Source of the DNA: an uncultured Zetaproteobacteria bacterium
GTDB lineage: Bacteria; Pseudomonadota; Zetaproteobacteria; Mariprofundales; Mariprofundaceae
Direction of reading: 5' to 3'
Length of the DNA: 26,547 nt
Assembly (NCBI GenBank): GCA_964597745.1
Contig: CAZQZF010000002.1
Coordinates: 1-26,547, forward strand
Under the pieces are notes generated by a model. That model was not told where the DNA came from. It made no database searches and was given only the letters and a program-made list of their open reading frames with translations. Shown one piece after another: positions 2,132-26,547 of the stretch (positions within the stretch are counted from its first letter, which is position 1; each line of letters opens with the position of its first letter). The translations under genes were made by a program, and so were the position numbers.

Positions 2132-2178
2132 GCTTTTCTCCCCATGATCTCCATTGCGATGCAAGTTGTGTTTCAGAG

Positions 2179-2970: not shown

Positions 2971-2997
2971 TCATATTCTCCTTTATTGTTTTTCTCT

Positions 2998-3073
2998 CGC
3001 CAAGACGCAAAGATCGCCAAGTTTAGAACCATATCCGTTCATCTTGTCTTTGCGTGCTTCGCGGCTTTGCGCG
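2998..3073. repeat. Intergenic imperfect hairpin built from CGC(A/C)AAG-type short repeats
   Basis: cgccaagacgcaaagatcgccaag pairs imperfectly with ctttgcgtgcttcgcggctttgcg; a similar arm lies at about 4105-4128. Confidence 0.55.
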
Positions 3074-3082
3074 ACCCCGCTT

Positions 3083-3772: not shown

Positions 3773-3864
3773 GTTTTTCCTCCTTATCATTGTCTCGCAC
3801 TGTCCTCTTGTTCGGTAGTCATCAATTATCCAGTCTTGCCGGAAATCAATCATTGCTGCATGAA

Positions 3865-3887
3865 CCCAACCCGACAAAGCCGGAACC
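3865..3887. repeat. Dispersed short repeat, with an inverted copy at 12084-12107
   Basis: cccaacccgacaaagccggaacc equals the reverse complement of ggttccggctttggtcgggttggg apart from one indel. Confidence 0.6.
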
Positions 3888-3898
3888 AAAACCCTTTG

Positions 3899-4002
3899 AA
3901 CCACGAATGAACGCGAATAGACATGAATAAAGCTCAAAGGCATATAGGATTGATTCTGGTTTTGTTTTTAACATTCGCGTGTATTCGCGTCCATTCGTGG
4001 TT
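3899..4002. repeat. 30-bp inverted repeat of tandem decamers (ACGCGAAT-type)
   Basis: 3899-3928 versus the reverse complement of 3973-4002: 26/30 identical; the left arm recurs at 7590-7623. Confidence 0.75.
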
Positions 4003-4051
4003 CGCCTCTCATGTTTCTTCTTCCGTATATATGCTTTTTTTCAACATCTTA

Positions 4052-4080
4052 AATTTCCCCGCAGCAAGCTACGGGGAATT
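4052..4080. repeat. GC-rich palindromic hairpin
   Basis: aatttccccgcagcaagctacggggaatt; stem ttccccg/cggggaa plus agc/gct. Confidence 0.55.
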
Positions 4081-4147
4081 GAACCCATAGAGATTAACGC
4101 CTTTCCTTTGCGATCTTTGCGCCTCTGCGAGAAAATTATTAGTCAGA

Positions 4148-4639
4148 TTATCGCATCCGCCGAACCAGATCATTCGTCGAAAGCATGCGATCGAGAAACA
4201 GGATGCCATCGAGGTGATCTACTTCATGCTGAATGACCCTGGCCTCAAACCCCCTCGCTTCCAGATCATGGCTCCCGCCTGTCAGATCCCGGTAGAGAAC
4301 ATGAATGCGGCTTGCCCTCGGCACCAGACCCACCCAGTCCGGTACGGATAGACAACCCTCCCTGCCCAGGACCTCATCTCCCTCAAATGTAGTCATCTCG
4401 GGATTGATTAGATATAACGGGCCGTGGTTACGGCACGGGCGTTTTGACAGGGAACAATCAATGGCAATGGCGCGAATTCCGCTGCCCACCTGCGGGGCGG
4501 CAATGCCGACGCCACCGGGAGGCTGGCGCATCAGGCCATCCAGATCACCCATAAAGCCCTCAAGATTCCTATCAAACCGGCTGACCGGCTGAGCTGAAAA
4601 ACGTAATCTTGGGTCCGGAAGACGCAGGATTTTCAGCAT
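4148..4639 (-). CDS. def: Peptide deformylase
   Basis: GVGIAAPQVG, EGCLS and QHEVDHLDG motifs. Confidence 0.95.
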   Translation of the reverse strand: MLKILRLPDPRLRFSAQPVSRFDRNLEGFMGDLDGLMRQPPGGVGIAAPQVGSGIRAIAIDCSLSKRPCRNHGPLYLINPEMTTFEGDEVLGREGCLSVPDWVGLVPRASRIHVLYRDLTGGSHDLEARGFEARVIQHEVDHLDGILFLDRMLSTNDLVRRMR

Positions 4640-4664
4640 AGCTCCTTAGCCTACCCGTAAAAGG

Positions 4665-5201
4665 TTAAAGAACGCTGGTTTCCAGGGGATGCGCCTCAAT
4701 ATCGACATTGATGGCTCTGGCGACTCCGGCCAGACGGGCCTGGAGTTCATTCATTGACTCGGCGGTTGCAACTTCCAGGACCATTGTGTATTTCTCTTCC
4801 TCATCACCGTCAGACACCGTGCGGGTGGACAGATCTACAATCGAGCTGCCTGCTTCCGCCATGGCCGCGGTCACGGCATGGACAATGCCCGGCCTGTCGG
4901 CCCCGCTGACGGTCACCATACAATTCGGTTCGGGGCCCCTGGAGGAGACTTCTTCATCCGTCAGCGGTCTGGATTGTACGGTGAGACCGGTCCGCTGCTC
5001 CAGCCCGGCAAGTGACGCCCTTAGGCCGCTGATACCGGAACCTTTGGTTAGACGCACAATCAGCATCATCACAAAACTTCCCCTCAGGGTCGTCATGGAT
5101 GAATCTTCAATATTGGCATTCAGATGAAGCAGGGACTCGGACAGGTCCCGGACAATACCAGGCCGGTCACGACCGGACACCGAAAGTAAAACATAGTTCA
5201 T
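4665..5201 (-). CDS. Tandem ACT-domain protein (GcvR-like)
   Basis: Two ACT motifs, SVSGRDRPGIV and TVSGADRPGIV; start MNYVLL after GAGGAGGG. Confidence 0.85.
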   Translation of the reverse strand: MNYVLLSVSGRDRPGIVRDLSESLLHLNANIEDSSMTTLRGSFVMMLIVRLTKGSGISGLRASLAGLEQRTGLTVQSRPLTDEEVSSRGPEPNCMVTVSGADRPGIVHAVTAAMAEAGSSIVDLSTRTVSDGDEEEKYTMVLEVATAESMNELQARLAGVARAINVDIEAHPLETSVL

Positions 5202-12579: not shown

Positions 12580-12699
12580 CGGCTCAATGAGGTTTCGCTC
12601 CCCACCTGTACCATCTATTGGTAATGGATATATATGACCGCAAGCTTGTGAATGTGATCATGAACCAATGAAGATGATATAATTCGGGGACTATCCTAA

Positions 12700-12859
12700 C
12701 CTGCACTATTCATGAATCGCCGTGATGATCGCGCAGGGCCTTTGTTCGTAACGGATTCCGAGGAAGGAGTGCGTAGCCGTGCATACGGGCGACCAACGAG
12801 GGATTCGGTGCGGGCAAAGGAACAAGCAAGGGCGCGGCAGTATTTATGAATAGTGCAGG
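12700..12859. mobile_element. MITE, 160 bp, with 18-bp terminal inverted repeats and a CTAA target-site duplication
   Basis: cctgcactattcatgaat … atttatgaatagtgcagg (17/18); CTAA at 12696-12699 and 12860-12863; related ends at 123-154 and 9676-9696. Confidence 0.75.
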
Positions 12860-12876
12860 CTAAGAGGTGGGGTTTC

Positions 12877-13065
12877 ATGTTGCAGATGGCAATTGCAGAT
12901 TTTTACAATGCCCAGCAAGCGGGGTTGGTCAGGGTGTTGATCGAAGGTGATACATATTACATTGTCGGCGATAATCTGATCGGTTCAGGGACAGCCTACA
13001 CCCGCGAAGAGATCGAACAGGCAGCCATGGCGACAGTTTTCGATGTCGAATACCTACAGGCATAA
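12877..13065 (+). CDS. Small hypothetical protein (62 aa), convergent with card1
   Basis: GAGGTG upstream of ATG 12877; plausible globular composition; no family recognised; 12-nt overlap with the card1 3' end. Confidence 0.3.
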   Translation: MLQMAIADFYNAQQAGLVRVLIEGDTYYIVGDNLIGSGTAYTREEIEQAAMATVFDVEYLQA

Positions 13066-14196
13066 TGGTTGATTCCGAACCTCTCCTTGATGTTGAATCC
13101 AGCGTCGAATCTTTTCATCCAAATGCCGGATGTCACGGCCCGTGCAGACAGCAATCCGGGCCTCGCTTGCCCGATTTCTGTCATGTTTTCCAAGCTTTTG
13201 GAAACTGACCAGCATGGATGCGGCGCGCAAACCGCCCAGGGCATCGGTTAATGCATCAAGCTTGTACACTGCATCCGAGCCGCCCTGTTTGAACTGTTTT
13301 GTCTTGCACTCAATCAGATGCAATCTGTTATCACACAAAAAAACGACATCAAGTTCATTGCATACCTCACCGCGCACCACGTTCAATCCCTGAGCCAGGT
13401 CATGGATATGCGGGTTGACGCTGCGCATGTGATGGATCACGGAAAAAACATGATGCTCCAGCCAACCGCCATTGACAAAAAAGCGGGCATCCTCATCCCG
13501 GAATCGCACCTGATCACCAGCGACCTCAAGCAGATTTTCCGCTGCAAACAGCCCCATTAAATCACCCAATTCTTTCCAGCGCCGTTTATCTTTGGGGACA
13601 GATGTCTGTAGCGTTGGATGCGCCTGATAGGCCAGATAATTCAGTGTTCCAAGCGGTGCGGTGAAGCGGTCAATCTCACTGATCAAGGTTCGGGTTAATT
13701 GGCGCAAATGTTTGGGCATGGCAGTGCGATTCATTGTCTTGCTCTGCACGCCATGCGCTTGCAGGAATTGCGGCAGACGAATTCTATCCTCGATGTCGAA
13801 TGCCTTTCTATCGGACGGATGCATCCAGATAACGCGATCCTTGTCAGGGTGGACATAAAAAATCGGCAATCCGAGTCCGCGAAACACCTCGTAAGCCGCA
13901 ATACTCATCGGCTTGGTGCCGCCAGTGGCATTTAAAGCGATGCTGCCCTCATGTTGCTCCAACAGTTCAAATACCCGATCTCGGATATGCTCCACATCCA
14001 TGGCATCATCAATCGGCCAGATAGATACGCGTACGCCGCATGGCTGAATCACCAGCTTGAGACGCTCAGCCTGCAACTTCTTTTCCGGGCTGGTCAGGAG
14101 GATCACTTCTTTCGGTTGAAATGAGGCATCCAGCAGCGGCGTGATATTCGGTGTTGGCTGATCGGAAACCAGGCAGAGGTGGCAGGTGGATTTCAT
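13054..14196 (-). CDS. card1: Card1/Can2-like CARF plus PD-(D/E)xK nuclease (DUF1887)
   Basis: HLCLVSDQPTPN, CARF motif LNATGGTKPMSIAAY, NGGWLE, NELDVV…LIECKT. Confidence 0.85.
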   Translation of the reverse strand: MKSTCHLCLVSDQPTPNITPLLDASFQPKEVILLTSPEKKLQAERLKLVIQPCGVRVSIWPIDDAMDVEHIRDRVFELLEQHEGSIALNATGGTKPMSIAAYEVFRGLGLPIFYVHPDKDRVIWMHPSDRKAFDIEDRIRLPQFLQAHGVQSKTMNRTAMPKHLRQLTRTLISEIDRFTAPLGTLNYLAYQAHPTLQTSVPKDKRRWKELGDLMGLFAAENLLEVAGDQVRFRDEDARFFVNGGWLEHHVFSVIHHMRSVNPHIHDLAQGLNVVRGEVCNELDVVFLCDNRLHLIECKTKQFKQGGSDAVYKLDALTDALGGLRAASMLVSFQKLGKHDRNRASEARIAVCTGRDIRHLDEKIRRWIQHQGEVRNQPLCL

Positions 14197-15425
14197 GCCA
14201 CCAGATCAGCCAGAGGCAGTGCTGTCACGCCGCCGCCCAGAGGCAGGCGCACATCACCGGGATGAATCACATAGCCGGGTGCAACCAGTGCTCCAAAGAG
14301 TGCTGAAAATTCATGGATGCCTCTGGCATAAGCCGGTTTGGGCGTACTGGATAGTTTAATTTCAACAGGATGCAGCCTGCCGTCTGATTCGATGATGATA
14401 TCCACCTCGCACCCTGCTGCCGTACGCCAGAACCAGACAGGAGGCCGTTCGCCCCGGTGCATATAATGCTTGACGATTTCGGCCAGAACGACGTTTTCCA
14501 TCAGCGCTCCACCCATAGGCCCGGCTGCGGCATGGAGGGGATCACGTAACCCAATCAGATAACAGAGGATGCCCGTATCCATGAAATAGACTTTCGGTCG
14601 TTTAACCAGGCGTTTGCCCACATTGGCATGATAGGGGCGCAATATAAAAATCTGGTAAGTCGCCTCCAGCACGGATATCCATGCCTTGATCGTATTGACT
14701 GCAATGCCAAGATCACGCGCAAGATCGGAAAGGTTGAGCAACTGGGCATTGTGTGCAGCCAGTGCGCGAAGAAAGGTTTGAAACTGTGTTAAATCGCCAA
14801 TCTGACGCAGGTTGCGTACATCACGCTCCAGATAGGTTTGCACATAAGCGGAAAACCACAGGGAAACATCCCTTTCAGGCGATGCTGCCAGTTCAGGATA
14901 GCCGCCACGCAGCACGTTGCGCCAGAGTTCATTGCCAGTAAAAGGTTTAGATGCCTGACCAGTCGATGCGCCTTCCCACGGAAACCGGACAGGCCCGGTT
15001 TGTTTCAATTCCCTGAGGGAAAGGGGCAAAAGTGTCAGCATGGCGGCGCGACCCGCCAGTGATTCAGAAATTTGCTGTGTGAGAAGAAGATTTTGTGAAC
15101 CGGTCAGCAGGTAACGCCCCGCATGATCCCTGTCCGCATCCACCTGTTCTTTGATATAAGGAAGCAGTCCTGGCGCGTATTGTACCTCATCGAAAATCAC
15201 CGGTGCCGGATACATGGCCAAAAAACCTCTTGGGTCTGCCGCCGCAGCCTGACGCACATCGGGCGGCTCCAGCGAAACGTAGGCGTAGTCATGGCCGAAC
15301 ATCCGTTTAAGCAGCGTTGTCTTGCCTGACTGGCGCGGTCCGGTCAGCACCAGAACAGGGAACTCTGCTACAGCCCGGCGGACAACAGATTCAATATTAC
15401 GGGGAATATATCCTTTCATAGCCAT
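14193..15425 (-). CDS. AAA_14 ATPase with DUF4143 C-terminus
   Basis: Walker A GPRQSGKTT, Walker B IFDEVQ, LTGSQ, LAGR, GGYPE, YLERDVR; C-terminal EVDIII…VEIK nuclease-like motif. Confidence 0.9.
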   Translation of the reverse strand: MAMKGYIPRNIESVVRRAVAEFPVLVLTGPRQSGKTTLLKRMFGHDYAYVSLEPPDVRQAAAADPRGFLAMYPAPVIFDEVQYAPGLLPYIKEQVDADRDHAGRYLLTGSQNLLLTQQISESLAGRAAMLTLLPLSLRELKQTGPVRFPWEGASTGQASKPFTGNELWRNVLRGGYPELAASPERDVSLWFSAYVQTYLERDVRNLRQIGDLTQFQTFLRALAAHNAQLLNLSDLARDLGIAVNTIKAWISVLEATYQIFILRPYHANVGKRLVKRPKVYFMDTGILCYLIGLRDPLHAAAGPMGGALMENVVLAEIVKHYMHRGERPPVWFWRTAAGCEVDIIIESDGRLHPVEIKLSSTPKPAYARGIHEFSALFGALVAPGYVIHPGDVRLPLGGGVTALPLADLVA

Positions 15426-15430
15426 ACTCT

Positions 15431-15463
15431 ATGCATATTTGCATTTCAAATGCAAATATGCAT
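15431..15463. promoter_or_regulatory. Perfect 33-bp palindrome, a candidate operator
   Basis: atgcatatttgcattt-c-aaatgcaaatatgcat, 16-bp perfect arms, 5 nt upstream of the ATPase start. The structure is certain; the function is inferred. Confidence 0.6.
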
Positions 15464-15483
15464 GAGGTAGTCTGCGCTATTTC

Positions 15484-15810
15484 TTAGTTAACAGCCGTTT
15501 TCCGTACCTGAAATTCCTCCAGCCGCGCATGGCAGCGAATCATGTCATCCATTGTCAATTCCCTGCCGCGAAGCTCTCGTGGCAGATCCAGTGAAAGATT
15601 GATATAGCGCGCTCCACGCTCACATACGGCGGCTGCAAGATGCACCGGCAATGAACCGATAACAGTATCGCCCGGCTGCACCTCACTCGTATCCAGATGG
15701 GCGCGGATTTCATCTGCCTCCATTCCCTGCAGACACAACCACTGCTGAGCTCCGGGATGCCGAGTGACAAACCATATACGGGAAGATGTCTTGCCTTCCG
15801 ATATGTTCAC
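15484..15810 (-). CDS. csx16: CRISPR-associated Csx16 (ring-nuclease family)
   Basis: WFVTRHPGA, GDTVIGSLPVHLAA, LDLPRELRGRELT motifs. Confidence 0.9.
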   Translation of the reverse strand: MNISEGKTSSRIWFVTRHPGAQQWLCLQGMEADEIRAHLDTSEVQPGDTVIGSLPVHLAAAVCERGARYINLSLDLPRELRGRELTMDDMIRCHARLEEFQVRKTAVN

Positions 15811-16883
15811 AGGTGTTTTCCCAACTGGTCAACAACAAAACAGTCACGCTCAAAATAACCAAATATTCGTTTCGCGCCCAGATCCGACCAGGCATACAAT
15901 TCGTGCGTGCAGGGGGGGTGCGGATCACCCTTCAGCCGTTTGAAATTGAGTGATCGCGGATTCGTTTTATCATAAAAATACCTGGCAAGTTCATCCATCC
16001 GTTCATTCACAATTCGTTTGCGTTCCGGTTGCAGCCCATTCACATCACGCTCAAAGCCGCATGAAAACCGGTAAGTATCCGCCAACGCGGGTAAAATAGA
16101 GTCTTCATATAATTTCGCTTTTGATTGATTCCAGACCAGTTCTCCCCAGTCTGACAGACAAACATCGCCGTCAATCTCCAGACGATAGAGCTCCGGGACC
16201 TCAGAAGGCAAGATATCAAGTCCAAGGTCAAGGCTGCGGAAGCCCTTTAGATGCTCACGCACCTCTTTCAGCGCATCCAGATAAACGGGCAGGCGGGGGA
16301 TTCGTAATAGCTCATTACCCGATTCAAAGATATAGATGCGCTCATCTGCATAGAATGCCCCCAGTGTTTGCATAAACCCCTGAATACTCTTGAAACCACC
16401 GGTGAGGTTGAACACAATGTGATAGCCTGATTGAGGAAGATCTTTTGCGCACCAGCGTGCAATATTTGCAAGCGCACGCCTAAAATGAGGCATGGAATCG
16501 GTGCGCAATCCCTCAAAGGTTTGCTCTTCCACACACAGCCCCGATTGCCGAAGCCACGCTTGTACGGCATCCGCGGCCTCCTTTCCCAACCATGTATCTG
16601 TGTGCAGCAGGATATGCTGATCCTGTTTTCCAAGATTCGGTTGATCACGGTAAAAATACATCAGTGCATTGATTTCAGCGCTTGCCTGTTTCGCCTCCTC
16701 CACGCTCATGCGCAGCATGCTATCGCGGCGATTCTGCAGGTGCCGGACGATCTGTTGACGGTGGTTAACAGGAATTGGCAAAGAACTGGCAGCATTACTG
16801 TATTGATTGCAAAGCCTGCGCACCTCCGGATCGGCCCTGTTGGTGATACAACTGGTGCCACAAAGACTGACGATATAGTTCAC
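15807..16883 (-). CDS. cami1: Cami1-like effector: APE2256-type CARF plus RelE-like mRNA interferase
   Basis: CGTS, SAEINAL, LLHTDT, FNLTGGFK, YIFESGNELLRIPRLP; C-terminal RelE-like domain (FKRLKGDP…HELYAWSDLGAKRIFG…LGKHL). Confidence 0.8.
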   Translation of the reverse strand: MNYIVSLCGTSCITNRADPEVRRLCNQYSNAASSLPIPVNHRQQIVRHLQNRRDSMLRMSVEEAKQASAEINALMYFYRDQPNLGKQDQHILLHTDTWLGKEAADAVQAWLRQSGLCVEEQTFEGLRTDSMPHFRRALANIARWCAKDLPQSGYHIVFNLTGGFKSIQGFMQTLGAFYADERIYIFESGNELLRIPRLPVYLDALKEVREHLKGFRSLDLGLDILPSEVPELYRLEIDGDVCLSDWGELVWNQSKAKLYEDSILPALADTYRFSCGFERDVNGLQPERKRIVNERMDELARYFYDKTNPRSLNFKRLKGDPHPPCTHELYAWSDLGAKRIFGYFERDCFVVDQLGKHL

Positions 16884-17347
16884 AGAAGTTTCTTTGTCGC
16901 TATATAGTTTCGTACAGATTCAAGCACTATCAGCAATGTCTGTGCATAATCATAAATACTGTTCAGCGCCTGAGCGCGATCTTCATCATTAAGCGGATAA
17001 TCGTGCGCCAGCCGGTTCCGAAGCAGCCGGGTTTCAATCCACTGCTCACTGTTGTCGATTAGCCTGCGTTTTTCCATAGCATGGAGGCAATCCAGCATCG
17101 AGACAGCCTCCTCCTGTTCAACCGTCAGCAGACCGCGGAACAACTGCCGCCCCAGCATATCCTGCAATTTACCGAAACGCATACAGAAGGCGTCAACACG
17201 CTCCAGCTCTTCCGGGGAAAGCACGCCTGTATTTCGACCATCCAGAGGAAAAATGGATGCCATCCGTTGCAGCGACCATTGCAGATGCTGAGCCAGCCGC
17301 GTGCATTGCTCCAGCGCCTCCGCCAACAATTTCCGCATATGAGTCAT
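16880..17347 (-). CDS. HEPN-like toxin (nucleotidyltransferase substrate-binding family)
   Basis: RVDAFCMRFGKLQD and Rx4H motif RNRLAHDY. Confidence 0.8.
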   Translation of the reverse strand: MTHMRKLLAEALEQCTRLAQHLQWSLQRMASIFPLDGRNTGVLSPEELERVDAFCMRFGKLQDMLGRQLFRGLLTVEQEEAVSMLDCLHAMEKRRLIDNSEQWIETRLLRNRLAHDYPLNDEDRAQALNSIYDYAQTLLIVLESVRNYIATKKLL

Positions 17348-17676
17348 AGTTCCACTCCCGTCTCAATGGCAACTTTCATGATGGTTTCCAACGGCTTGCC
17401 CCGCCGATGCAGCAGCAGATCAATCTTTTGCTCACCGAGCCGTCGCTGCAGGGCTACAGCCAGCCTGAGCTTGCGCTGGAACCAGTCGGAGGTGTCATCC
17501 ACTTCCAGATAAAGATCAATATCACCGCCCCGCTTCGCATCATCCACACGCGAGCCAAACAGATAAACGCAAGCGCCTGCGCCAAAGATTTCCTGAACGG
17601 CCTCGCGGATATGCTGTTGCTGAGCGGGGGTTAGGCGCAAGGTATTAACTGCGTTTTTCGGATAGTGCTTTGGCAA
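17344..17676 (-). CDS. Minimal nucleotidyltransferase (MNT) antitoxin
   Basis: LFGSRVDDAKRGGDIDL (GSx10DxD) and KIDLLL; true start is probably TTG 17640. Confidence 0.85.
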   Translation of the reverse strand: MPKHYPKNAVNTLRLTPAQQQHIREAVQEIFGAGACVYLFGSRVDDAKRGGDIDLYLEVDDTSDWFQRKLRLAVALQRRLGEQKIDLLLHRRGKPLETIMKVAIETGVEL

Positions 17677-18772
17677 TCTTTTTTGGCCGTTGCTTGAACT
17701 TCGGCTTATGCTTCTTGCCCATCACCGCATCGGGATTGGCCATGATTCCCCTGTACTTTTTCTCCATCCAGTCGCACAGATAACTTGCCACCTCTGGCAT
17801 GATCATGTCATGTTCCTCCAAGTATTGTTCCATATCCTGAAGGAAAGTCCCGTTATTGCCCCAACGCGATTCAGATTGATGCAGCAGTGCCAACTCCCGT
17901 TGACCGGGTGTCATTGCTGCCAGGCGAGCAGCCTGCTCTCTCTCTGCCGATACCTGTTTTTGTTGCTCACAGACTGCCTCGCGAACTGCTTCCTCCTCTT
18001 GCTGCGCTTGCTCATCCACCGCCATCGCCCCATAGCCGACTGCTGTCTTGGAACCAAACCCCAGCCAGTCAAAAACGTGCTCAAAACATTGTTTCAGCAT
18101 GACCTGCCAATCAAGAATGCCGGTCGGGCGAATCATTTGAACATGGAAGGCAAACTGCGCACCGGGAGCAACCGTAAGAAAAGGAATAGGATTAGGGGAT
18201 TCAGAATCGTGGGGTGATGCGATTCCTTCCTGAAGATACGCACTATGGTGCGGGGTCATGATATCCAGAGCCAGTTTACCCTGCGGAAATACATCCCAAA
18301 AGTTCAATGCGCCCTGGCTGTCATCGTCTGATCTACTGCCGAACAACTCGTCCACTACGCCAACATCAACTTTCAGTTCTTCAGCAGCACGAAGCATTAC
18401 TCCTTTCACCGACGAACCGGGCAGATAAGGAAGACCATAGGGGTTAAGGAATGCGAAGCCGTTTTCCAGAGGGTGTTCGTAGCCCATGCCTGTCGCAAAA
18501 GGCGCCGTGGCGATGGCATATTCAGAGTAAACAGAATCGCCTAATGTCAAAGCCTGAAACTGCTGCCGTTGTGCCAGAGAGTGCTGCCGTTGTGCCAGAG
18601 AGTGCTGCCGTTGATCATCAGGATGCAGTGCCAGCACCTTTTTGATTGCATCAGTTTTTTTATCCTTAACCATTTCCCATTGTTCATTCCAGATCGGGAA
18701 ATACATGCCAAACCGATGACCGGGCGCAGCCTGTTGCATATCGCGCATATATTGTGGAACTGCGGCTTTCAT
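17645..18772 (-). CDS. cmr6: Type III-B RAMP protein Cmr6, orphan in this window
   Basis: ENGFAFLNPYGLPYLPGSSVKG, GALNFWDVFP, DIMTPHH, SPNPIPFLTV, GFGSKTAVGYG; RBS TAAGGAG before ATG 18772. Confidence 0.85.
   Translation of the reverse strand: MKAAVPQYMRDMQQAAPGHRFGMYFPIWNEQWEMVKDKKTDAIKKVLALHPDDQRQHSLAQRQHSLAQRQQFQALTLGDSVYSEYAIATAPFATGMGYEHPLENGFAFLNPYGLPYLPGSSVKGVMLRAAEELKVDVGVVDELFGSRSDDDSQGALNFWDVFPQGKLALDIMTPHHSAYLQEGIASPHDSESPNPIPFLTVAPGAQFAFHVQMIRPTGILDWQVMLKQCFEHVFDWLGFGSKTAVGYGAMAVDEQAQQEEEAVREAVCEQQKQVSAEREQAARLAAMTPGQRELALLHQSESRWGNNGTFLQDMEQYLEEHDMIMPEVASYLCDWMEKKYRGIMANPDAVMGKKHKPKFKQRPKKIAKALSEKRS
18561..18613. repeat. In-frame 21-nt tandem repeat (2.5 copies) inside cmr6
   Basis: Unit tgctgccgttgtgccagagag at 18561 and 18582, partial at 18603; protein QRQHSLA-QRQHSLA-QRQ. 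Confidence 0.9.
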
Positions 18773-18782
18773 GATTTTCTCC

Positions 18783-18986
18783 TTAACCTGCATGCCGTAA
18801 CAGCTCTTCCGGTGCGTCCACAGGCAATACGCCATCTTTTTCAGCATCCAAAATAGTGATCTGACCAAGGCCATCTTCCGTTATTCCCGCCACCATATTC
18901 CAGCCATAGGAGATGTCCCGAATGATGGGTTTATCGTTAAAACGGATAAACAGCAGGTCTTCCTTATCATCATAGGTAATTTTCAT
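18783..18986 (-). CDS. DUF2283-like small protein (putative antitoxin)
   Basis: MKITYDDKEDLLFIRF…GQITILDA; ATGA overlap with the upstream gene. Confidence 0.75.
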   Translation of the reverse strand: MKITYDDKEDLLFIRFNDKPIIRDISYGWNMVAGITEDGLGQITILDAEKDGVLPVDAPEELLRHAG

Positions 18987-19249
18987 GTTATTAGCTCCCA
19001 ACGGATCATGACGGTCTTGATCACCAGATTTTCTTCTTGTACTGCGGCGGCACACATCAAATTATCATGACGATGGGCAAACGCATGATAAATCCAGAAA
19101 TGCTGCTTATCTTTTTCCTTCACGGTTCCACCTTCAATCAACGCCAACAGTTCACCTTTATGGATTCCTCGCTCCTGCATCCGTGCAATGGCATGCCGGG
19201 TAATTACGACACGACGATGGAAGCGTTTGCTGAACATCTTATCACTCAA
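18983..19249 (-). CDS. DUF4258-like small protein (putative RNase toxin)
   Basis: VITRHAIARMQERGI…LVIKTVM; TTG start (ATG 19237 is an alternative). Confidence 0.75.
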   Translation of the reverse strand: MSDKMFSKRFHRRVVITRHAIARMQERGIHKGELLALIEGGTVKEKDKQHFWIYHAFAHRHDNLMCAAAVQEENLVIKTVMIRWELIT

Positions 19250-19336
19250 TCAGAACCCCGGTGTCTGCAAACTGCCGCAGCCTGTTGTATATCGCACACA
19301 TATTGTGAAACAGCAGCCTGCATGATTTTCTCCTTA
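19246..19336 (-). pseudogene. Diverged duplicate of the cmr6 RBS and 5' end (25-codon mini-ORF)
   Basis: 19276-19336 versus 18725-18785: 53/61 identical, no gaps; MQAAVSQYVCDIQQAA versus MKAAVPQYMRDMQQAA. Confidence 0.8.
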
Positions 19337-19546
19337 TCCATACATCAGGCGACGCTCATGCGGGGCTGGAACTTCAACATCATCTTCGCGTGCGCTGGAG
19401 AACCACAATGCCATGGCCTGATGGATATTATTGCGTGCTTCACTGCCGCTTGCGCCATGTGCCATGCAACCGGGCAACTCCGGCACCTCAGCAATAAATG
19501 CATTATCTTCTTTGCTCCAGCAAATAATGGTTTCGTATTTATACAT
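19334..19546 (-). CDS. hicB: HicB-family antitoxin (short, no adjacent HicA)
   Basis: WSKEDNAFIAEVPELPGCMAHG…EA…I..AMALW. Confidence 0.85.
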   Translation of the reverse strand: MYKYETIICWSKEDNAFIAEVPELPGCMAHGASGSEARNNIHQAMALWFSSAREDDVEVPAPHERRLMYG

Positions 19547-19813
19547 CGGAGTTCTTCTTGCCCTTATGATTTATTTGATCCAAATCATCTTCCCAACTAT
19601 CCCGTTCTGCATGAATGTAGGCCATAATTTCCTGCATGGATTTTCGCGGATAATCCTTTCCATCCAGAGATTCGAGGAATGACAATAGACTTTCATCTGA
19701 TCGATCCTTTTCTTTATTTTCGTTCATAACCAAATACTTCGATTTCCTCTTCCTACCTCTCCCCTTGGCCACAATGCCGTCCTGATATTGACTCTCAATT
19801 TTACTGCCTGCAT
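19539..19813 (-). pseudogene. Probably frameshifted small antitoxin-like gene
   Basis: RBS TAAGGAG and ATG 19813 give MQAVKLRVNI, which stops early; a different frame gives …QDGIV…SMQEIMAYIHAERDSWE to the stop at 19539. Confidence 0.45.
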
Positions 19814-19880
19814 TTTATTTCTCCTTACGCCTGCTCAGACATCACTCTCGGAAAGGTAATACATGACTTTCAAAGGGCGC

Positions 19881-21347
19881 TCATTTTTTACCTCTATTGA
19901 ATTTTTCCTGCAAAGCCTTTAATGCATCAGAGGAAGCAGAATGATGCCTGGTTAGTTGCCCCTTAGGTTTCTTTTGTAGATGACCTTGTTTCATCTTGTC
20001 TTTCCGTTCTTGCGCTATAGGCATCCTGTTTTTCTGACGCATTCGTTGGCGGGCAATTTCAGCGGGGGGTAGGCCTTGCTGAATCTCCGGATGCGAACTG
20101 TGTTCCTTATTCCGAATCGACTGCTTAATTTTCGGTGCCAAGATTTCAGGCAATACTTCATTACCTTCTGCCATTTCCACCAACAACCACCCAAAGGGGC
20201 GCAACCTCTTTTGTTCATCCTGACTGCTCGCAGCCAGCCAGACAGTTTTTGCCTGTTTCTCCCATAAAGGTTGCTTGTCGCGCCCCTGCATAATCTTGAT
20301 ATTGCGCACACCATTGAGCGTAACTGATTCCGCACCGCTATGCCTTCCGACGCGCAATAAAAATGCCTTGTTATTTTTTAATAGCATTTGTACAGAAGCC
20401 TGTTGCAACAAGGCCAATGTTGCTTTTCTCCATTCCTGATCGAGAAGTCCTCTACCGCTTAACAGTTTTGTTTCCATATCCCATATTGGGCTGTAAAAAT
20501 GATTACAGGCGATGGCAATATCTTCAAAGCTAAAACGATACTCTGGAAGCTTTATTTTCTGATGCTCCAGTACTCCTCCAGGATTACTGATGCCAATTTG
20601 TCCAGTATAGGCGCGTACGTGAAATGGCGTTACGGTCTCCAATAATTGATACAATCCCGCTTTTTCCGCTTGTGACTTGATATTGTCTCCTGCCTTTTTC
20701 CTGCGATTGACGGCAAACAGGACTTCTGTCTGTGTCATGTTCTGCTTGTCCTGTCCGGCGCAATCACCAACCTGAACCAGTCTCATTGGGTCTTTGAAAA
20801 TTTCCTTCATGGAGTACTGAAACAGTCTTTGTTGTAGATCTCTGTTACGTTCGCCTCTTTCAGCCTGTTGCCCATGATTGATGCTATTCAACAATGCTGT
20901 TCGGATAGCGCCCTTCAAACCAGACCCCGGCAATATGGGATGGCGATTCAGGGGATTATAGAAGACTCTTTCGATTTCCAGTTTGTTCTGCACAGTTCTT
21001 CCGCCCGATTCCCTGTGCGCCGCCTGACCAATTTTACTTCGATAAAGTTCGGCCACGCCATGACTCACCCGTGTCTGGTTTATCGCGTGAGGAATCAATT
21101 GCTTCCTGTGCTCAAAAAACAATGCCTGCACGCGCATCAGCATTCGGCCACTGGCCTTACCTTCCAGCATTGACGCTAATTTCTTGCGCGTATCATCAGG
21201 CAACGAAGACAGTGCTCTATGATCAAATTCATACAATATATCGCCTTCAATGACATAATTTGTGGGAGCATAATCTTCATCCGTTCCCATATGCACGGGA
21301 GAAAGTGAAGTGATCAACACTTGCCGTGTTTCAGGAATGCCACTCAT
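19881..21347 (-). CDS. csm5: Type III-A RAMP Csm5
   Basis: LSPVHMG…Y.PTNY, ILPGSGLKGAIRTA, DPMRLVQVGD, LRVGRHSGAESVT, PFGW. Confidence 0.9.
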   Translation of the reverse strand: MSGIPETRQVLITSLSPVHMGTDEDYAPTNYVIEGDILYEFDHRALSSLPDDTRKKLASMLEGKASGRMLMRVQALFFEHRKQLIPHAINQTRVSHGVAELYRSKIGQAAHRESGGRTVQNKLEIERVFYNPLNRHPILPGSGLKGAIRTALLNSINHGQQAERGERNRDLQQRLFQYSMKEIFKDPMRLVQVGDCAGQDKQNMTQTEVLFAVNRRKKAGDNIKSQAEKAGLYQLLETVTPFHVRAYTGQIGISNPGGVLEHQKIKLPEYRFSFEDIAIACNHFYSPIWDMETKLLSGRGLLDQEWRKATLALLQQASVQMLLKNNKAFLLRVGRHSGAESVTLNGVRNIKIMQGRDKQPLWEKQAKTVWLAASSQDEQKRLRPFGWLLVEMAEGNEVLPEILAPKIKQSIRNKEHSSHPEIQQGLPPAEIARQRMRQKNRMPIAQERKDKMKQGHLQKKPKGQLTRHHSASSDALKALQEKFNRGKK

Positions 21348-22294
21348 GCGTCCACTTCCAGATGAATGGCCAACACAGGGGTATAACCCTGTTGTACCGT
21401 TTCAGGAATTGCCCGGGAAAGGCTGCCATCGCCTCCTAGGCCATGGCCGACAAACAGACTTTCCTGATATTTGTTCGGGGTCAGTACCGCACCTGTGTCA
21501 ACCAACAAGACGGGAGATTTGAAGGGTCGTCCTGTATGCACAGCCATGTCGCCATGTCTGCCAAAGCGAGTGAATGGCTGATACCAGCAGTGTTCAGCAT
21601 CAAGGGATAGCCCCTGTGATGCGCAGGGAGCAAGCGTCATCCAGGCATTGGCTTTTTCCTGTTCAGGCCATGTAGCGGAATCTTTTTTCAATAGCTCAAA
21701 TTTCCCTAGGCCAATGCTAGTATCTCGACCATAGCCACTGGTTCCTATATCCTCAATCATCATCTCGATCTCTTCCTGACCAATTCGATTAACATCAAAA
21801 CAAAGATAGATTTCCAACAGCATGCCTTGCACCGGCCAATATTGGGGCATTTGGTATGGCGCAAAAAGGTCAGTTCCCGTGGTACCGCTTAATCGGTTGA
21901 TGGTATTATGGGGTTGCGCTTTTTCCTGCCATAGCGGTGTACCTGCAATCTCCGTTTCACTTTTACAAACACGCAACCATTCCCGAACAGGTAAAATGAA
22001 ATTGGACTTCGGCAACCATTGGCGTTTCTTTACCTGCTTTCTATCTGCATCGGGTACATCATCATAGCGATACAGCGGCCATGCCGGTTTCGGAAGGAAC
22101 CCGGCGGGAAATGCATCGGAAACAACCAGAAACGGTTTTCCCTCTGTGTAGCCCTGTAGCAATGTCCGAAGTCTGTCTTCACCAAACCTGTGCCGGATTA
22201 TCCAGCACAGTTGCCCAAACAACGTATCCCCGCGAATGCTTCCGCCAAATGCAGATCGCGGCTGAATACGCATAGTGAGTGGCGCCATGGTCAC
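21344..22294 (-). CDS. csm4: Type III-A RAMP Csm4
   Basis: GDTLFGQLCW, LVVSDAFP, HNTINR, GYGRDTSIGLGKF. Confidence 0.92.
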   Translation of the reverse strand: MTMAPLTMRIQPRSAFGGSIRGDTLFGQLCWIIRHRFGEDRLRTLLQGYTEGKPFLVVSDAFPAGFLPKPAWPLYRYDDVPDADRKQVKKRQWLPKSNFILPVREWLRVCKSETEIAGTPLWQEKAQPHNTINRLSGTTGTDLFAPYQMPQYWPVQGMLLEIYLCFDVNRIGQEEIEMMIEDIGTSGYGRDTSIGLGKFELLKKDSATWPEQEKANAWMTLAPCASQGLSLDAEHCWYQPFTRFGRHGDMAVHTGRPFKSPVLLVDTGAVLTPNKYQESLFVGHGLGGDGSLSRAIPETVQQGYTPVLAIHLEVDA

Positions 22295-22296
22295 AA

Positions 22297-23010
22297 CTAC
22301 AGTTTCACCCGTTCCAGTCTTTCCTGAATGGATTGTCCATCTATTTGCAGACTACGAAAAGCGATTTTCCCATAGCCGCGAGACAACGATCCTCCCAAGC
22401 CAGTCAATTCAATCAGTTTGAGCCCACGAAAAATCGGTTTAAGTAAATCCTCACTGTCAACCACCTTCAGACTCAACTGAAACCTGAATCTTGCTCCGCC
22501 AGGAACACGCTCGGTGTTCCTTGGATTCTCCGCTGTTCCTTTGATACGATCAATAGTATTTTCCATCTTGGTTTCAGTGAGCAGCAGGTTTTTATCATCC
22601 ATCTCCCTGACCCACATCGCATCAAGAGCACAATCCCAGAAAGCCAGGCGGGTTGGGCCAATTTCCCTGACCAAATTCTCATCCATATTGGATCCGGTTG
22701 GCGAATAGCCAAAAAGTCGCAATATCTCGATACCCTGAGCTCTGTTGCCATCCAATTTGTGGATATGATCAATGCCAAGAGGTTTGCCGTTTGTCATACC
22801 AACCACGCCTGCATGCCATTCCATCAGGCTGCGCATCTTGCCCTTGATACTGGAACCGGGGATATATGGCTGATTGCTGACAGGGTTTTTGATGACCGGG
22901 TTATCCGTACCTCCAATATGCATCTCAGTATTGCCACTGCCAATATGGAGCCCTGAGACCAGTTCAATGATTCCGTTTATTTTTGAGATTCTATCCAGTT
23001 TCATGATCAA
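22297..23010 (-). CDS. csm3: Type III-A Csm3 backbone RNase
   Basis: SGLHIG, IGGTDNPVIK (catalytic Asp present), PYIPGSSIKGKMR, ENTIDR, ERVP, LGGSLSRGYG; ATG 23004 is an alternative start. Confidence 0.95.
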   Translation of the reverse strand: MIMKLDRISKINGIIELVSGLHIGSGNTEMHIGGTDNPVIKNPVSNQPYIPGSSIKGKMRSLMEWHAGVVGMTNGKPLGIDHIHKLDGNRAQGIEILRLFGYSPTGSNMDENLVREIGPTRLAFWDCALDAMWVREMDDKNLLLTETKMENTIDRIKGTAENPRNTERVPGGARFRFQLSLKVVDSEDLLKPIFRGLKLIELTGLGGSLSRGYGKIAFRSLQIDGQSIQERLERVKL

Positions 23011-23453
23011 TCTCCCTTTTCAACCTTGTAAAATCCCAGAAACGCTTCAAAAAATAATTTGGCAGTCCTTAAATCACTAAGGCCGTGCACTGAATCAATA
23101 ATTTGTTCCAATAACTCAACAAAAACAGTATCAACCAGTTTGCGACCTTTGGCATAGGCGGCTTTGGCCTTGAGCATCCGAATAAAGGGTAAATACTCAT
23201 CAAATCGTTCCGGATTTTGCCGAACCTTTTCTTCCCACATCACCAGTTCATCATAAAAACGACGGACTTGGGTGCCTTTATTCATTTCGCGTTTAACATC
23301 AGCAACTTTTTTTGCCGCTTTCCTGGCTGTAGTATCAAATAGGTTAGATGGGATATTCCCTCTATCATTTTTAAAGCAAATGTTGACATCTAGGGTTCGC
23401 GGTTCTTGATGACTGCGGCTGCCGCTACGGGGATTTGTTCGTGGATTATACAT
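23007..23453 (-). CDS. csm2: Type III-A small subunit Csm2
   Basis: TQVRRFYDEL, LKAKAAYAKGR, FFEAFLGFYK; lies between cas10 and csm3. Confidence 0.92.
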   Translation of the reverse strand: MYNPRTNPRSGSRSHQEPRTLDVNICFKNDRGNIPSNLFDTTARKAAKKVADVKREMNKGTQVRRFYDELVMWEEKVRQNPERFDEYLPFIRMLKAKAAYAKGRKLVDTVFVELLEQIIDSVHGLSDLRTAKLFFEAFLGFYKVEKGD

Positions 23454-23462
23454 ACTTTCTCC

Positions 23463-26132
23463 TTAATACCGTTCGTGATAAAGGTGCAAAAAAAGTGGCA
23501 CCCGAAACTTGCTTCCAAATAGATGAATCGGCTCTTTCAATACTTTTGCCAGTTCAACCATGCGCTGCTTACGTTCATCATTGTTAAGTCCACGGGTGCG
23601 TTCCAACATTCTCCAACTTCGGTAGGCGAACCATGCCTGCCAAATCGCATTTTCGATGTTTGGATGTTCCGATTTGAGGTTTTCTGACATGTTCGCCAGT
23701 TCCTGTAAGCGGTAAAGGTAGCCTGTGCTTAAACTATATTTCTCGCCAATGTTTTGGATATCATCGAAACAGCGCCACAACACTTCAAACTCTTTCCAGC
23801 TCGCAGTTTCACCAAATATAGTAATGGCATTCTTACCTTCATATAGCTTGGATGCATCCAGTGCAGTCTCCGCTATTTCTCCAAGCTGATGCACAGGCAG
23901 TCCCGGCTTGGTCATCACCAGCCCTGCTGAAAAATGGATGTCATGATTGTCTGCTACATAGCGCGAAAATTTCCGCTCTATTTCTCTAATCAATTTCACA
24001 GTGCTCTTCCATGGGCCGATCAGAAAAAAATCATCCCCGCCAGCGAAGACTGTATAGGTGCTTGGATACTTTTCCTGACACAGCATCGGCAAATAAACAG
24101 CAAAGAAAGCATTCATTTGACGAGATAGCGATGCCCACTTAGCAAAGGTCGGTCGCTCCAGACCCTTTTCAAAAATGGCCCCTAAATTATCCACATCTCC
24201 CTTGAGCACCATTAACGCGTCGCTGCCTTTCCACTTTCCTGATTCATCAACCCATAAATCATCCCTTGCGATATGCTCAAAGGTCTTGGGCGCAAGCGCA
24301 TCCCATTCTGATATCTTGTCCAACCCCTCGTAACGATCTTTGTCCCATGCATTCAACGCACCACACAGGGGGATATAAGCATCAATATTTCGCCGGGCAT
24401 AGCCTGAAAAAAGAGTGCTGTCCATATCAGCAGGCAGAGCATAATCCCATGCTCGCCGCAACTTTCCTTCTTTCGCCCATGCGCCGAATTTCCCTGTTGC
24501 ATCCTCGTCACCAGTGAAACTTGCCCAGTAACCAAACAGATTAAGCTTGAGCGTATGGTGGTTGGGGTTTTCTGTCGTTAGCAGCAGTCTGGCATAGTGC
24601 CCCAGCCACCGTCCGATCCGAATCTGATCAGCAGCAAGCCGTGATGCATATTTTCCAGCACCGGGTTCTATTTCTTCAATAGCCGGAGAACGGCCATCAA
24701 TAGCGCACACGCCCTTGTCCGCATCAAACGCATCCAGGAAGCTGTCAAAAACAGGCTTGGGGGCATGCTCGCAACAAAGCGAATATCGTTTTGTTTTCAT
24801 CTCTTCCAACTTGTGAAACAGGCAGCTAATCAATAGTTTGAAGGGCGCTTCTCTGTCTTTTCTTTTATTCAGAAAGTCATTACAGCACGCTGACTCCCAA
24901 GCCAGCCCGATACCCGACTGGCCATAGGTGTGTTCCAAAAACCACTGATCAACTTCCTGCTGTACTAATTGAAGTTTTTTCAGCGTTGCCTCACTGTTTG
25001 GAGCAACAATGAGAAACTTTCCAGCCGCATTGATAACCTGACTGGTTGGCGGAAGCTGCAGGCTTTCCAAGACCTTAAGTGCAACGCATTCCGTTAACAG
25101 GGATACATGGAATGAACGCCCGCGCATCAGCTTGGCTGCATTGCGCTGAGTTTCTCCCCCCGTAGCAAAAATAAATTCCTGGATGCCGAAAAAATCGCCC
25201 ATCACAATTAATAGTTTTTTCTCATCCCAATCATGCCTACTCTGCATCGCATCAATGGCGGAATCCTGATCCATCTGCTTATCGTGGTGATACCGCCATA
25301 AAGCCGTAGCAAGAGCAGACGTAGTTCGGGAGTGATCATACAGGGAAACTTCAGGTTTTGTGTTTCCAGCAGTCGCTGAAGGAATCGCATGAGTAAATGC
25401 TGCCCAAAGGGAGTCAAAGTGATCCAACCATAATGACCAGTTCTTTCGATGTGATGCCGGAATAGTTTTCAATGCCTCTGTAAAGCTATCCCAAAGTTGC
25501 CGGTACTCACTCTGTGCCTGGTTATTATGGTTGCTTTCGCACTCATCTGCCTTGACAGGAAACATTTGCTTTGCACTCATGGGTTTCAGCGGATGACGCC
25601 ACTTTAAATCTGCTTTGACTTCTTCTGTTTTTTGCTGCCAATGAATCTGTTCAAAAAGGGTCAGCTGCCTGGCGGTATAATGATTCCGTCCGGTTGATGT
25701 TTTCTCTTCTGCTACATTATAGGCTTCAAACTCCTCCCGCTCAAAACCAGAGGCGATTCGATCCGCTGTCGCCACAATCCACTGCAAAAATGTTTCTGGT
25801 TTGTGATGCTTGGCAGCAGCATTGATCATGGAGTCGGCGACATCAGGGCTTTTCCACGCTGGAAATGGAAGCATATCCTCACCAACCAGATCAGGAAGAT
25901 GGTGTTCAATCAGATCCATGGAAATAGCTGTATAGGCAGCATGAATATGTGTAAACCGGCCTGTTGCATCGGTAAATGCCTTTCGATGAGGGCAGTAAAG
26001 CTGCTTGTTAATCTCCAAATTTTCTTTATTTACCGGGTTGATACGGGCGCGTTCGGAGAATTTCCCCATGTCATGCAGTAAGGCAGATAAGGCAACCCTG
26101 CTGGATGCATCAAGTAAATCATTCTTCTTCAT
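23463..26132 (-). CDS. cas10: Cas10/Csm1
   Basis: HD motif LLHDMGKF, SLYDHS, GDFFGIQEFIF, RGRSF, KGDVDNLG, cyclase motif FAGGDDFF. Confidence 0.97.
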   Translation of the reverse strand: MKKNDLLDASSRVALSALLHDMGKFSERARINPVNKENLEINKQLYCPHRKAFTDATGRFTHIHAAYTAISMDLIEHHLPDLVGEDMLPFPAWKSPDVADSMINAAAKHHKPETFLQWIVATADRIASGFEREEFEAYNVAEEKTSTGRNHYTARQLTLFEQIHWQQKTEEVKADLKWRHPLKPMSAKQMFPVKADECESNHNNQAQSEYRQLWDSFTEALKTIPASHRKNWSLWLDHFDSLWAAFTHAIPSATAGNTKPEVSLYDHSRTTSALATALWRYHHDKQMDQDSAIDAMQSRHDWDEKKLLIVMGDFFGIQEFIFATGGETQRNAAKLMRGRSFHVSLLTECVALKVLESLQLPPTSQVINAAGKFLIVAPNSEATLKKLQLVQQEVDQWFLEHTYGQSGIGLAWESACCNDFLNKRKDREAPFKLLISCLFHKLEEMKTKRYSLCCEHAPKPVFDSFLDAFDADKGVCAIDGRSPAIEEIEPGAGKYASRLAADQIRIGRWLGHYARLLLTTENPNHHTLKLNLFGYWASFTGDEDATGKFGAWAKEGKLRRAWDYALPADMDSTLFSGYARRNIDAYIPLCGALNAWDKDRYEGLDKISEWDALAPKTFEHIARDDLWVDESGKWKGSDALMVLKGDVDNLGAIFEKGLERPTFAKWASLSRQMNAFFAVYLPMLCQEKYPSTYTVFAGGDDFFLIGPWKSTVKLIREIERKFSRYVADNHDIHFSAGLVMTKPGLPVHQLGEIAETALDASKLYEGKNAITIFGETASWKEFEVLWRCFDDIQNIGEKYSLSTGYLYRLQELANMSENLKSEHPNIENAIWQAWFAYRSWRMLERTRGLNNDERKQRMVELAKVLKEPIHLFGSKFRVPLFLHLYHERY

Positions 26133-26547
26133 CCCGCTTCCTCCTGCTTCAGTGCCATCATCTCATACCGGCCCATGCCCATCGTGGTCATTTTGCCGAT
26201 ATGCGTCCATTGACCCAGCCATAGCATCGGCCAGAGATGGTGCGCTTGAGCTGCTGTGAGGTCAAAGGCGCCAACCACGCCGCCAATTTTCATCGATGTT
26301 TTCTGGCGGCTGGAATAACGCTCTGTTTCCTGCCAGCGAAGGTCGGGGGCGCACCATTCTCCCGCTTCATCCACCGCGCATAATTGCCGCATGGCGGATT
26401 CATCGCCCCATGATGCGGCCAGACTGATCAACCTGCGCCGCAGTGCCCTGATCCATAGCTCCAGCGTCAGCGTATCCGGCGTGACAAAATGGCCCTGATG
26501 TTTGAACCGAACCGGCGTAATCAGTTGTAGATGCAATGTCTGCCCGG
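26129..26547 (-). CDS. cas6: Cas6, 3' part (open at the window edge)
   Basis: ITPVRFK, W.ETERYSSRQ…MKIGG and G-rich loop HIGKMTTMGMGRY; frame stays open to 26547; ATGA overlap with cas10. Confidence 0.88.
   Translation of the reverse strand, partial: GQTLHLQLITPVRFKHQGHFVTPDTLTLELWIRALRRRLISLAASWGDESAMRQLCAVDEAGEWCAPDLRWQETERYSSRQKTSMKIGGVVGAFDLTAAQAHHLWPMLWLGQWTHIGKMTTMGMGRYEMMALKQEEAG

Follow-up and report, generated by a model that had tools for sequence, protein, structure and literature searches.

A cmr6 gene stranded behind a type III-A CRISPR operon in a zetaproteobacterium: probable leftover of a Cmr-to-Csm cassette exchange

The window analyzed here, a 26,547-nt contig (CAZQZF010000002.1) of an uncultured zetaproteobacterium, carries a complete type III-A CRISPR effector module, with cas10/csm1 and csm2-csm5 in a single operon, and downstream of it an intact cmr6 (17645-18772, minus strand), a gene of type III-B complexes. 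Open reading frame (ORF) and profile scans found neither cmr1-5 nor a second cas10 on the 26.5-kb contig, which is the scope of all our statements on the absence of these genes. An initial annotation of the sequence had rightly described a lone, intact cmr6 behind csm1-5, with no cmr1, cmr3, cmr4, cmr5 or second cas10 after csm5, and had offered two readings: a hybrid Csm+Cmr6 complex, or the remnant of a deleted III-B module. Our comparison with related loci favors the second in a specific form. The orphan cmr6 is probably the leftover of a recombinational swap of Cmr genes for Csm genes. Within one vent-mat population, a single chromosomal locus occurs in three forms: a complete III-B locus, a III-A locus without cmr6 and a III-A locus with a stranded cmr6. 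Three kinds of sequence contain the breakpoints: cas6, toxin-antitoxin cassettes and a stretch of tail-coding DNA that csm5 and cmr6 have in common.

The exchange is most directly visible in L005, a III-B contig from a sample that also holds the window haplotype. Window and L005 share synteny around one chromosomal site, that of rpsO-pnp. The two are 97.5% identical at the nucleotide level in the rpsO region, 91% in the AAA and Card1 genes, 87.3% in the MNT/HEPN genes, 84.5% in the RAMP part of cmr6, and 81.9% across hicB and the start of cmr6 (window 19276-19562 = L005 6735-7021, where hicB and cmr6 are continuous). At the opposite end, the last 113 nt of cas6 (window 26124-26236 = L005 1-113) are 92.9% identical. 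Between cas6 and hicB, L005 has cmr1-cmr2-cmr3-cmr4-cmr5-hicA; the window there has cas10-csm2-csm3-csm4-csm5, and no DNA homology to L005 was detected across window positions 19905-26123 (cas10 to csm5). In both contigs, cas6 and the first effector gene overlap, with stop and start codon combined in ATGA. The flanks are shared, the effector genes have no DNA similarity, and the overlap with cas6 is the same; cmr1-5 were most likely exchanged for csm1-5 in situ, between the cas6 stop and hicB. The idea that cmr6 is what remains of a III-B module is thus borne out by synteny.

Other csm contigs carry related cassettes with different outcomes for cmr6. The csm cassette of the window is 86.5% identical to that of contig L011. 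The most similar cassette is that of L014/L015, which come from the same samples and have a Csm5 83% identical to that of the window. L014/L015 clearly lack cmr6: in L014, csm5 is directly followed by the genes located past cmr6 in L005 (L014 3043-4745 = L005 7961-9662, 97.4%), as if the swap had also taken out cmr6. In L011 (Csm5 75% identical), hicA and hicB are kept, and the DNA past hicB is the sequence found 3′ of cmr6 in L005. The position of this sequence right after hicB points to a deletion of cmr6, so that L011, too, probably lacks the gene. No cmr6 was found in L016, L102 and L103, whose csm operons are more distant.

The DNA between csm5 and cmr6 retains what appear to be scars of these exchanges. 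The initial annotation needs correction here, since cmr6 does not adjoin csm5: the two are separated by ~1.1 kb (18783-19880) that holds toxin-antitoxin genes along with fragments of genes, and this interval is debris of recombination. All genes and fragments of the locus lie on the minus strand, and transcription therefore runs in order of descending coordinates. The csm5 stop codon is straddled by a relic (19835-19890) of the 3′ end of what we call a type-2 tail, described below. In the +1 frame the relic reads KNERPLKVMYYLSESDV, ending in a stop, and it is homologous to the end of the L005 Cmr6 (KKHERTLKVMRYLAKDAD, likewise followed by a stop) and to the ends of some Csm5 proteins. A search of the other frames of the csm5 3′ region recognized only these last ~17 codons past the stop as tail module. 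The relic is carried by all three csm haplotypes, and the crossover between L014 and L005 falls within it; it marks where the csm cassette ends on the right and is its probable 3′ homology arm. Next come a vapB-like antitoxin gene (19539-19813, from three-frame translation), which has no PIN partner and is frameshifted relative to four homologues (L011, L005, L014 and L006), and a hicB (19334-19546, PF15919) without its hicA. Of the hicA-homologous sequence, only the last ~16 nt are left (19547-19562). Homology to L005 begins inside this 3′ end, which marks the left edge of the III-B-derived segment.

Closer to cmr6, a second kind of scar is visible. A duplicated 5′ fragment of cmr6, comprising a ribosome-binding site and ~21 codons (19276-19339), is 85.9% identical to positions 18725-18788. 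The duplicated cmr6 starts flank an inserted toxin-antitoxin-like cassette of a DUF4258 gene (18983-19237, PF14076) and a DUF2283 gene (18783-18986, PF10049), the latter directly 5′ of cmr6. This cassette is homologous to one that sits directly before cmr6 in the III-B contig L006 (76.6% identity, window 18002-19282). The duplicated fragment is best understood as a recombination scar, and recombination in the conserved 5′ end of cmr6 appears to swap the toxin-antitoxin cassettes that precede the gene. In addition, a conserved segment of ~50 nt, containing the ribosome-binding site and the start (MQAVKL...) of the vapB-like antitoxin, recurs at cassette boundaries in L005, L014, L011, L006 and the window (19777-19830), and may be a recombination hotspot.

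These observations can be arranged into a model. The ancestor, probably a zetaproteobacterium of hydrothermal microbial mats, would have carried cas6-cmr1-cmr2-cmr3-cmr4-cmr5-hicA-hicB-cmr6 and ancillary genes next to rpsO-pnp. A portable cassette, consisting of the 3′ end of cas6, csm1-5 and the tail relic, would then have replaced the cmr genes by homologous recombination, with the left crossover within cas6. In this scheme, whether cmr6 is kept depends on where the right crossover falls. A crossover in the relic past csm5, which is homologous to the 3′ ends of cmr6 genes with type-2 tails, would lose cmr6 and yield the haplotype of L014. In the window haplotype, the crossover would have occurred further upstream, in the toxin-antitoxin region around hicA/hicB, and cmr6 would have stayed. 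A later exchange would have inserted the DUF4258/DUF2283 cassette and duplicated the 5′ end of cmr6. This order of events is the one we infer; the identities of the genes, the synteny, the breakpoints and the three haplotypes themselves are directly shown. Because Cmr1, Cmr4 and Cmr5 are missing from the contig, cmr6 would here be without partners, and functionless or at most an optional passenger.

The stranded gene is a true Cmr6, a Cas7-family RAMP protein of type III-B. Its ORF of 375 codons is open, starts with an ATG at 18770-18772 and is preceded by a strong ribosome-binding site (AAGGAG, 7 nt 5′ of the ATG). The same 375-aa product appears in Joint Genome Institute (JGI) gene calls on four further contigs. 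The protein matches the Cmr6 equivalog model TIGR01898 at 105.4 bits (cutoff 51.1, E = 4e-30) and the RAMP family PF03787 (E = 6e-14). It keeps the G-rich loop GFGSKTAVGYG, which, together with the ribosome-binding site, had been correctly noted from the sequence at first reading, and it retains 44 of 44 invariant columns in an alignment of 28 family members. When a profile of these 28 sequences was compared with the Protein Data Bank (PDB), the best matches were Cmr6 chains, with E-values of 1e-36 to 6e-13 (9arw_H, 1e-36; 3x1l_H, 5e-34; then 9l7c_I, 4w8v_A and 6s6b_I), and other RAMP proteins scored far more weakly (Csm3, 7e-6; Csm5, 2e-3). An AlphaFold2 model (predicted local distance difference test score, pLDDT, of 80) likewise found the Cmr6 chains 6s6b_I and 9l7c_I as its top Foldseek matches. 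The gene is a mosaic. Its RAMP part is L005-like, and its tail has no DNA similarity to L005 and resembles that of L003 (75.5% across the whole gene). It also contains a perfect tandem duplication of 21 bp (18561-18613, minus strand, 2.5 copies with 100% matches in Tandem Repeats Finder), which adds seven amino acids (QRQHSLA) found in no homologue in the family alignment. As it falls in a stretch of family-conserved length, this duplication appears to be a very recent change.

What sets this gene apart is its context. Among the loci of the genome scan described below, the closest Cmr6 genes are found in Zetaproteobacteria/Mariprofundaceae, at 57-69% identity. All eight of the nearest relatives with readable contigs (P0002, 72%; P0003, 78%; P0004, 58%; P0005, 70%; P0008, P0009, P0010 and P0074) lie at the end of complete cmr1-6 operons. 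The usual order is (csx1)-cas6-cmr1-cas10/cmr2-cmr3-cmr4-cmr5, then small toxin-antitoxin genes, then cmr6, optionally followed by csx16, Card1 and other genes. In a wider genome scan, limited to one genome per species, neighboring genes were classed with hidden Markov models (HMMs) built from these operons. Among the best 80 loci of this Cmr6 clade, the region upstream of cmr6 held a full cmr1-5 in 58 and cmr genes up to the contig end in 15; it was decayed or rearranged in two and too short to be informative in five. Thus, a cmr context, which the window gene lacks, accompanies cmr6 in 73 of the 75 informative loci. A csm5 followed by a lone cmr6, without cmr genes, occurred in none of them. 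Full-text searches of the literature likewise brought up no description of a lone cmr6 attached to a Csm operon. As a side observation, six identical, complete cmr1-6 loci (L035-L040), several at contig ends, were found in one long-read metagenome-assembled genome (MAG; CATOTI01) and represent either a repeated element or an assembly artefact.

The C-terminal tails of Cmr6 and Csm5 deserve separate consideration, since they connect the two gene families at the DNA level. Residues 251-375 of the window Cmr6 (17648-18022) form a type-1 tail, made up of one long helix, a bundle of three helices and a basic terminal segment (GIMxNPDAxxGKKxKPKFKxRP). The tail is modeled by AlphaFold2 with a pLDDT of 91; it gave no Pfam match and no PDB fold match (E > 6). 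It is homologous to the C-termini of Csm5 proteins of ~550 aa (phmmer E-values down to 5e-21). There are two unrelated tail types, and both occur in both families (for example P0194, P0174, P0127 and P0003). Type 1 was found in 66 of 120 Cmr6 and 14 of 120 Csm5 homologues, and type 2 in 31 and 29 of the same sets. The type-1 tail is always C-terminal: a search of 1.84e9 representative sequences returned 37 matches, only in fragments or in proteins about as long as Cmr6 or Csm5. The 488-aa Csm5 of the window and its three closest relatives have neither tail (no match to the tail HMMs), unlike most of their ~550-aa relatives, and Csm5 homologues cover only 82% of the query. By eye, tail type shows no correlation with csx16 or other neighbors, and the literature search found no report of a tail shared by Csm5 and Cmr6. 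In these proteobacterial systems, the tails are interchangeable between Csm5 and Cmr6. As the Csm5 of S. epidermidis recruits PNPase and RNase R (PMC10289348), host RNases would be natural candidates for partners of the tails. The shared tail-coding DNA may plausibly provide the right homology arm when cassettes are exchanged, and cas6 the left one.

Several observations weigh against the view that cmr6 is a mere leftover. First, the gene is well preserved. Its ORF and ribosome-binding site are intact and it lies on the operon strand. It deviates at four of 91 strongly conserved columns, compared with a median of three among 120 homologues. The ratio of nonsynonymous to synonymous substitution rates (dN/dS, Nei-Gojobori) of its RAMP part against L005 is 0.094, although this value mostly reflects long evolution inside III-B loci and does not isolate the period after orphaning. 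For comparison, dN/dS is 0.08-0.22 in neighboring genes and 0.07-0.17 in the csm genes against L011. Thus, neither relaxed selection, which the initial annotation had listed among the results that would refute its finding, nor any other mark of a pseudogene (frameshift, stop codon, loss of conserved residues, raised dN/dS) is seen. Second, the haplotype is unchanged across sequencing runs dated 2017 and 2020 from three studies. Third, the window Csm5 is tail-less while its Cmr6 bears a tail, an arrangement that would fit a complementing role. Fourth, L011 ends 50 nt past hicB, and its lack of cmr6 rests on a match of 57 nt. Finally, our view of this genome spans a single 26.5-kb contig, which leaves a small chance that the gene serves a Cmr module elsewhere. 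Four near-identical contigs of the orphan lineage differ by 19 single-nucleotide polymorphisms in total, clustered at contig ends (csm3, csm5 and the AAA gene); none falls within cmr6, which makes the set uninformative for selection. We therefore describe cmr6 as a relic in its context, though its sequence does not yet show it. That it is still undamaged suggests that its orphaning was probably recent, and the gene may retain a residual role.

The preserved state of cmr6 would also be expected if it acted in trans, with the host having another cmr module, possibly one lacking its own cmr6, that this gene serves. III-A and III-B modules often coexist in related bacteria, even in tandem: complete operons of both types stand side by side, in either order, in L050, L060 and L101 (Thiobacillaceae and Gammaproteobacteria MAGs and one metagenome contig), with csm1-5 preceding cmr1-6 in L101. 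The samples that hold the window haplotype also contain complete III-B loci at another chromosomal site (L108, beside rlmN). No such module is linked to the organism, which is represented by a single 26.5-kb contig, and the cmr modules observed in relatives all have a cmr6 of their own. A trans-acting role is therefore unlikely.

The hybrid reading would make Cmr6 a member of the Csm complex, either as an additional 3′ cap or as a substitute one, which may alter the length of the CRISPR RNA (crRNA) or target capture. It has a structural rationale. Solved and reconstituted Cmr complexes show Cmr6 capping the crRNA 3′ end jointly with Cmr1 and binding Cmr4; there it is built into the complex together with Cmr1, Cmr4 and Cmr5 and makes target capture possible (PMC4215187). 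Csm5 holds the corresponding 3′-end position in Csm complexes (PMC10289348), so that Csm5 and Cmr6 are counterparts. The intact, co-oriented gene with its low dN/dS and the homologous tails of this clade, type 1 on Cmr6 and absent from Csm5, speak for the same idea. In its most explicit version, Cmr6 would bind the Csm3 filament, either next to Csm5 or in its place, and provide the lost tail in trans, which would make the effector a natural Csm/Cmr chimera. Against this, the arrangement is limited to one clonal haplotype and recurs neither in the informative loci of the genome scan nor in any examined relative. L014/L015 have this same tail-less Csm5 yet no cmr6, and in L011 the gene seems to have been lost. 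The DNA between csm5 and cmr6 is debris of recombination, and the known partners Cmr1, Cmr4 and Cmr5 are missing from the contig. Because there is no recurrence in the other lineages examined, and because the closest csm cassettes lack cmr6, the hybrid reading fails by a sign that the initial annotation had itself named as refuting, the want of an association with Csm. We regard a functional hybrid as quite improbable, and its filament version as very improbable.

Transcript data contribute little to this question. In a single very small and shallow metatranscriptome (X7), one contig mapped to the locus, over hicB and the vapB-like gene (19318-19841, word depth 56), and no RNA contigs covered the csm genes or cmr6. 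A second metatranscriptome (X10) gave no contig on the locus. A promoter and terminator scan of 17200-20100 yielded nothing exceeding chance, a result that is uninformative on co-transcription of cmr6.

The same relic could have arisen by another route, in which csm1-5 and cmr1-6 first stood in tandem and cmr1-5 were then deleted. Tandem csm-cmr loci do exist, as in L101, and III-B modules decay beside csm operons. In L098 (Ga0256839_1000097, 1-5200), a decayed III-B module lies directly upstream of an intact csm1-5; cmr1 is intact, cmr2-4 are missing, cmr5 is present and cmr6 has an in-frame internal deletion, with PIN/VapB pairs interspersed. This would be an independent case of III-B decay next to an intact csm operon. 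Two features point the other way. The relic past the csm5 stop matches the 3′ ends of cmr6 and csm5 genes with type-2 tails, and the crossover of L014 with an L005-like locus falls exactly there. In addition, cas6 adjoins csm1 with the same ATGA overlap that joins cas6 to cmr1 in L005. Together, the tail relic and the ATGA overlap argue for replacement rather than insertion followed by deletion, which makes the tandem route very unlikely.

The linkage of csm5 to cmr6 is found in four JGI assemblies at 99.9-100% identity. Single contigs from three separate studies of microbial-mat and hydrothermal-vent metagenomes span cmr6 into csm5 without differences (X1, 18584-20651; X3, 18584-21400+; X4, 18743-20651). 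An assembly chimera of a csm strain with a cmr strain, suggested by the presence of several related haplotypes in the same samples and by contigs that break in shared sequence (cas6 and the 21-bp repeat, where the unitigs of all runs stop), is rejected as next to impossible, since the four assemblies are independent and the unitigs and contigs of three studies cross the junction at even depth.

The remaining genes of the locus complete this picture. In order of transcription, the window has a partial cas6 (3′ part, 26129-26547, at the contig end; PF10040, common to III-B loci), cas10/csm1 (23463-26132; TIGR02578, 674 bits, with HD and GGDD motifs visible), csm2 (23007-23453; TIGR01870, 57 bits), csm3 (22297-23010; TIGR02582, 209 bits), csm4 (21344-22294; TIGR01903, 119 bits) and csm5 (19881-21347; TIGR01899, 39.4 bits, barely above the cutoff of 38.3). 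After the small genes and cmr6 come, all identified by profile scans, an MNT gene (17344-17640) paired with a HEPN-like gene (16880-17347), a CARF gene of the Cas_APE2256 family (15807-16883), csx16 (15484-15810), an AAA_14/DUF4143 ATPase (14193-15419) and Card1 (13054-14196), and then rpsO, pnp and housekeeping genes. No CRISPR array was found on any of the compared contigs, the window included, and an Rfam scan of the window gave zero matches.

The ancillary genes (13054-17640) appear to have been kept from the ancestral locus. The set includes two CARF proteins (Cas_APE2256 family and Card1) along with csx16, the ATPase and the MNT/HEPN-like pair. That a set of III-B origin now stands beside a Csm cassette suggests that signaling partners of the cyclic oligoadenylate (cOA) pathway are common to Cmr and Csm effectors. 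Downstream of related type III operons, we also observed fusions of a CARF domain with adenosine deaminase (Cas_NE0113 + A_deaminase) in L109 (4783-8876), L016 (16061-18217) and L002 (19337 to the end); L109 has NUDIX and Csx3-like genes as well. Between rpsO and Card1, the window contains a 172-bp element (12694-12865) that resembles a miniature inverted-repeat transposable element, with terminal inverted repeats of 24 nt. Its word depth in the metagenome is ~6700, versus ~50 in its flanks, and it is missing from the syntenic L005.

The locus may be of interest for several reasons. First, it offers a natural example of the exchange of type III effector modules, in which Csm and Cmr complexes can replace each other while cas6 and the cOA-responsive ancillary genes stay the same. 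Second, it points to an uncharacterized C-terminal module on both 3′-cap subunits that may deserve its own study. The claim of a new hybrid effector does not hold, and the lone cmr6 is best viewed as a side product of recombination; the population record of III-B/III-A cassette exchange and the tail modules of Csm5 and Cmr6 are the more useful results.

It is useful to compare the locus with known systems. As a protein, the window Cmr6 is like the Cmr6 of III-B complexes in its equivalog model, PDB profile, predicted fold, RAMP/Cas7 core and G-rich loop, and it adds a member to a known family, in a setting that arose by accident. It is unlike the solved Cmr6 proteins compared here (P. furiosus, 4W8V; the chimeric P. 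furiosus/A. fulgidus complex, 3X1L; A. fulgidus, 9L7C; S. islandicus Cmr-beta, 6S6B) in standing without cmr1-5, in its helical and basic C-terminal tail of ~125 aa and in its unique 7-aa duplication. Csm5 of III-A systems is its functional counterpart (PMC10289348), and the tails of Csm5 and Cmr6 are alike in this clade; the two nevertheless belong to different RAMP families (TIGR01899 and TIGR01898), and the Csm5 of the window has no tail.

As a locus, the window recalls the III-B loci of the Nitrosomonas europaea type, which are arranged as csx1/NE0113-cas6-cmr1-6-csx16/NE0116; Csx16 is NE0116 (PMC6546367). The frame of the window, with cas6, hicB, cmr6, csx16, Card1 and MNT/HEPN, is that of the relatives L001, L003, L005, L006, L107 and L108. 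It differs from the N. europaea type in having csm1-5 in place of cmr1-5. Atypical and hybrid CRISPR-Cas loci are described as common in the CRISPRCasTyper preprint (10.1101/2020.05.15.097824, citing Bernheim 2020). Like such mosaic loci and the orphan cas genes that module shuffling produces, the window combines the genes of two subtypes in one locus with a shared cas6 and shared ancillary genes. Unlike the reported cases, the donor, the recipient and both kinds of recombinant are here found in one natural population, and the breakpoints are resolved to a few tens of bases.

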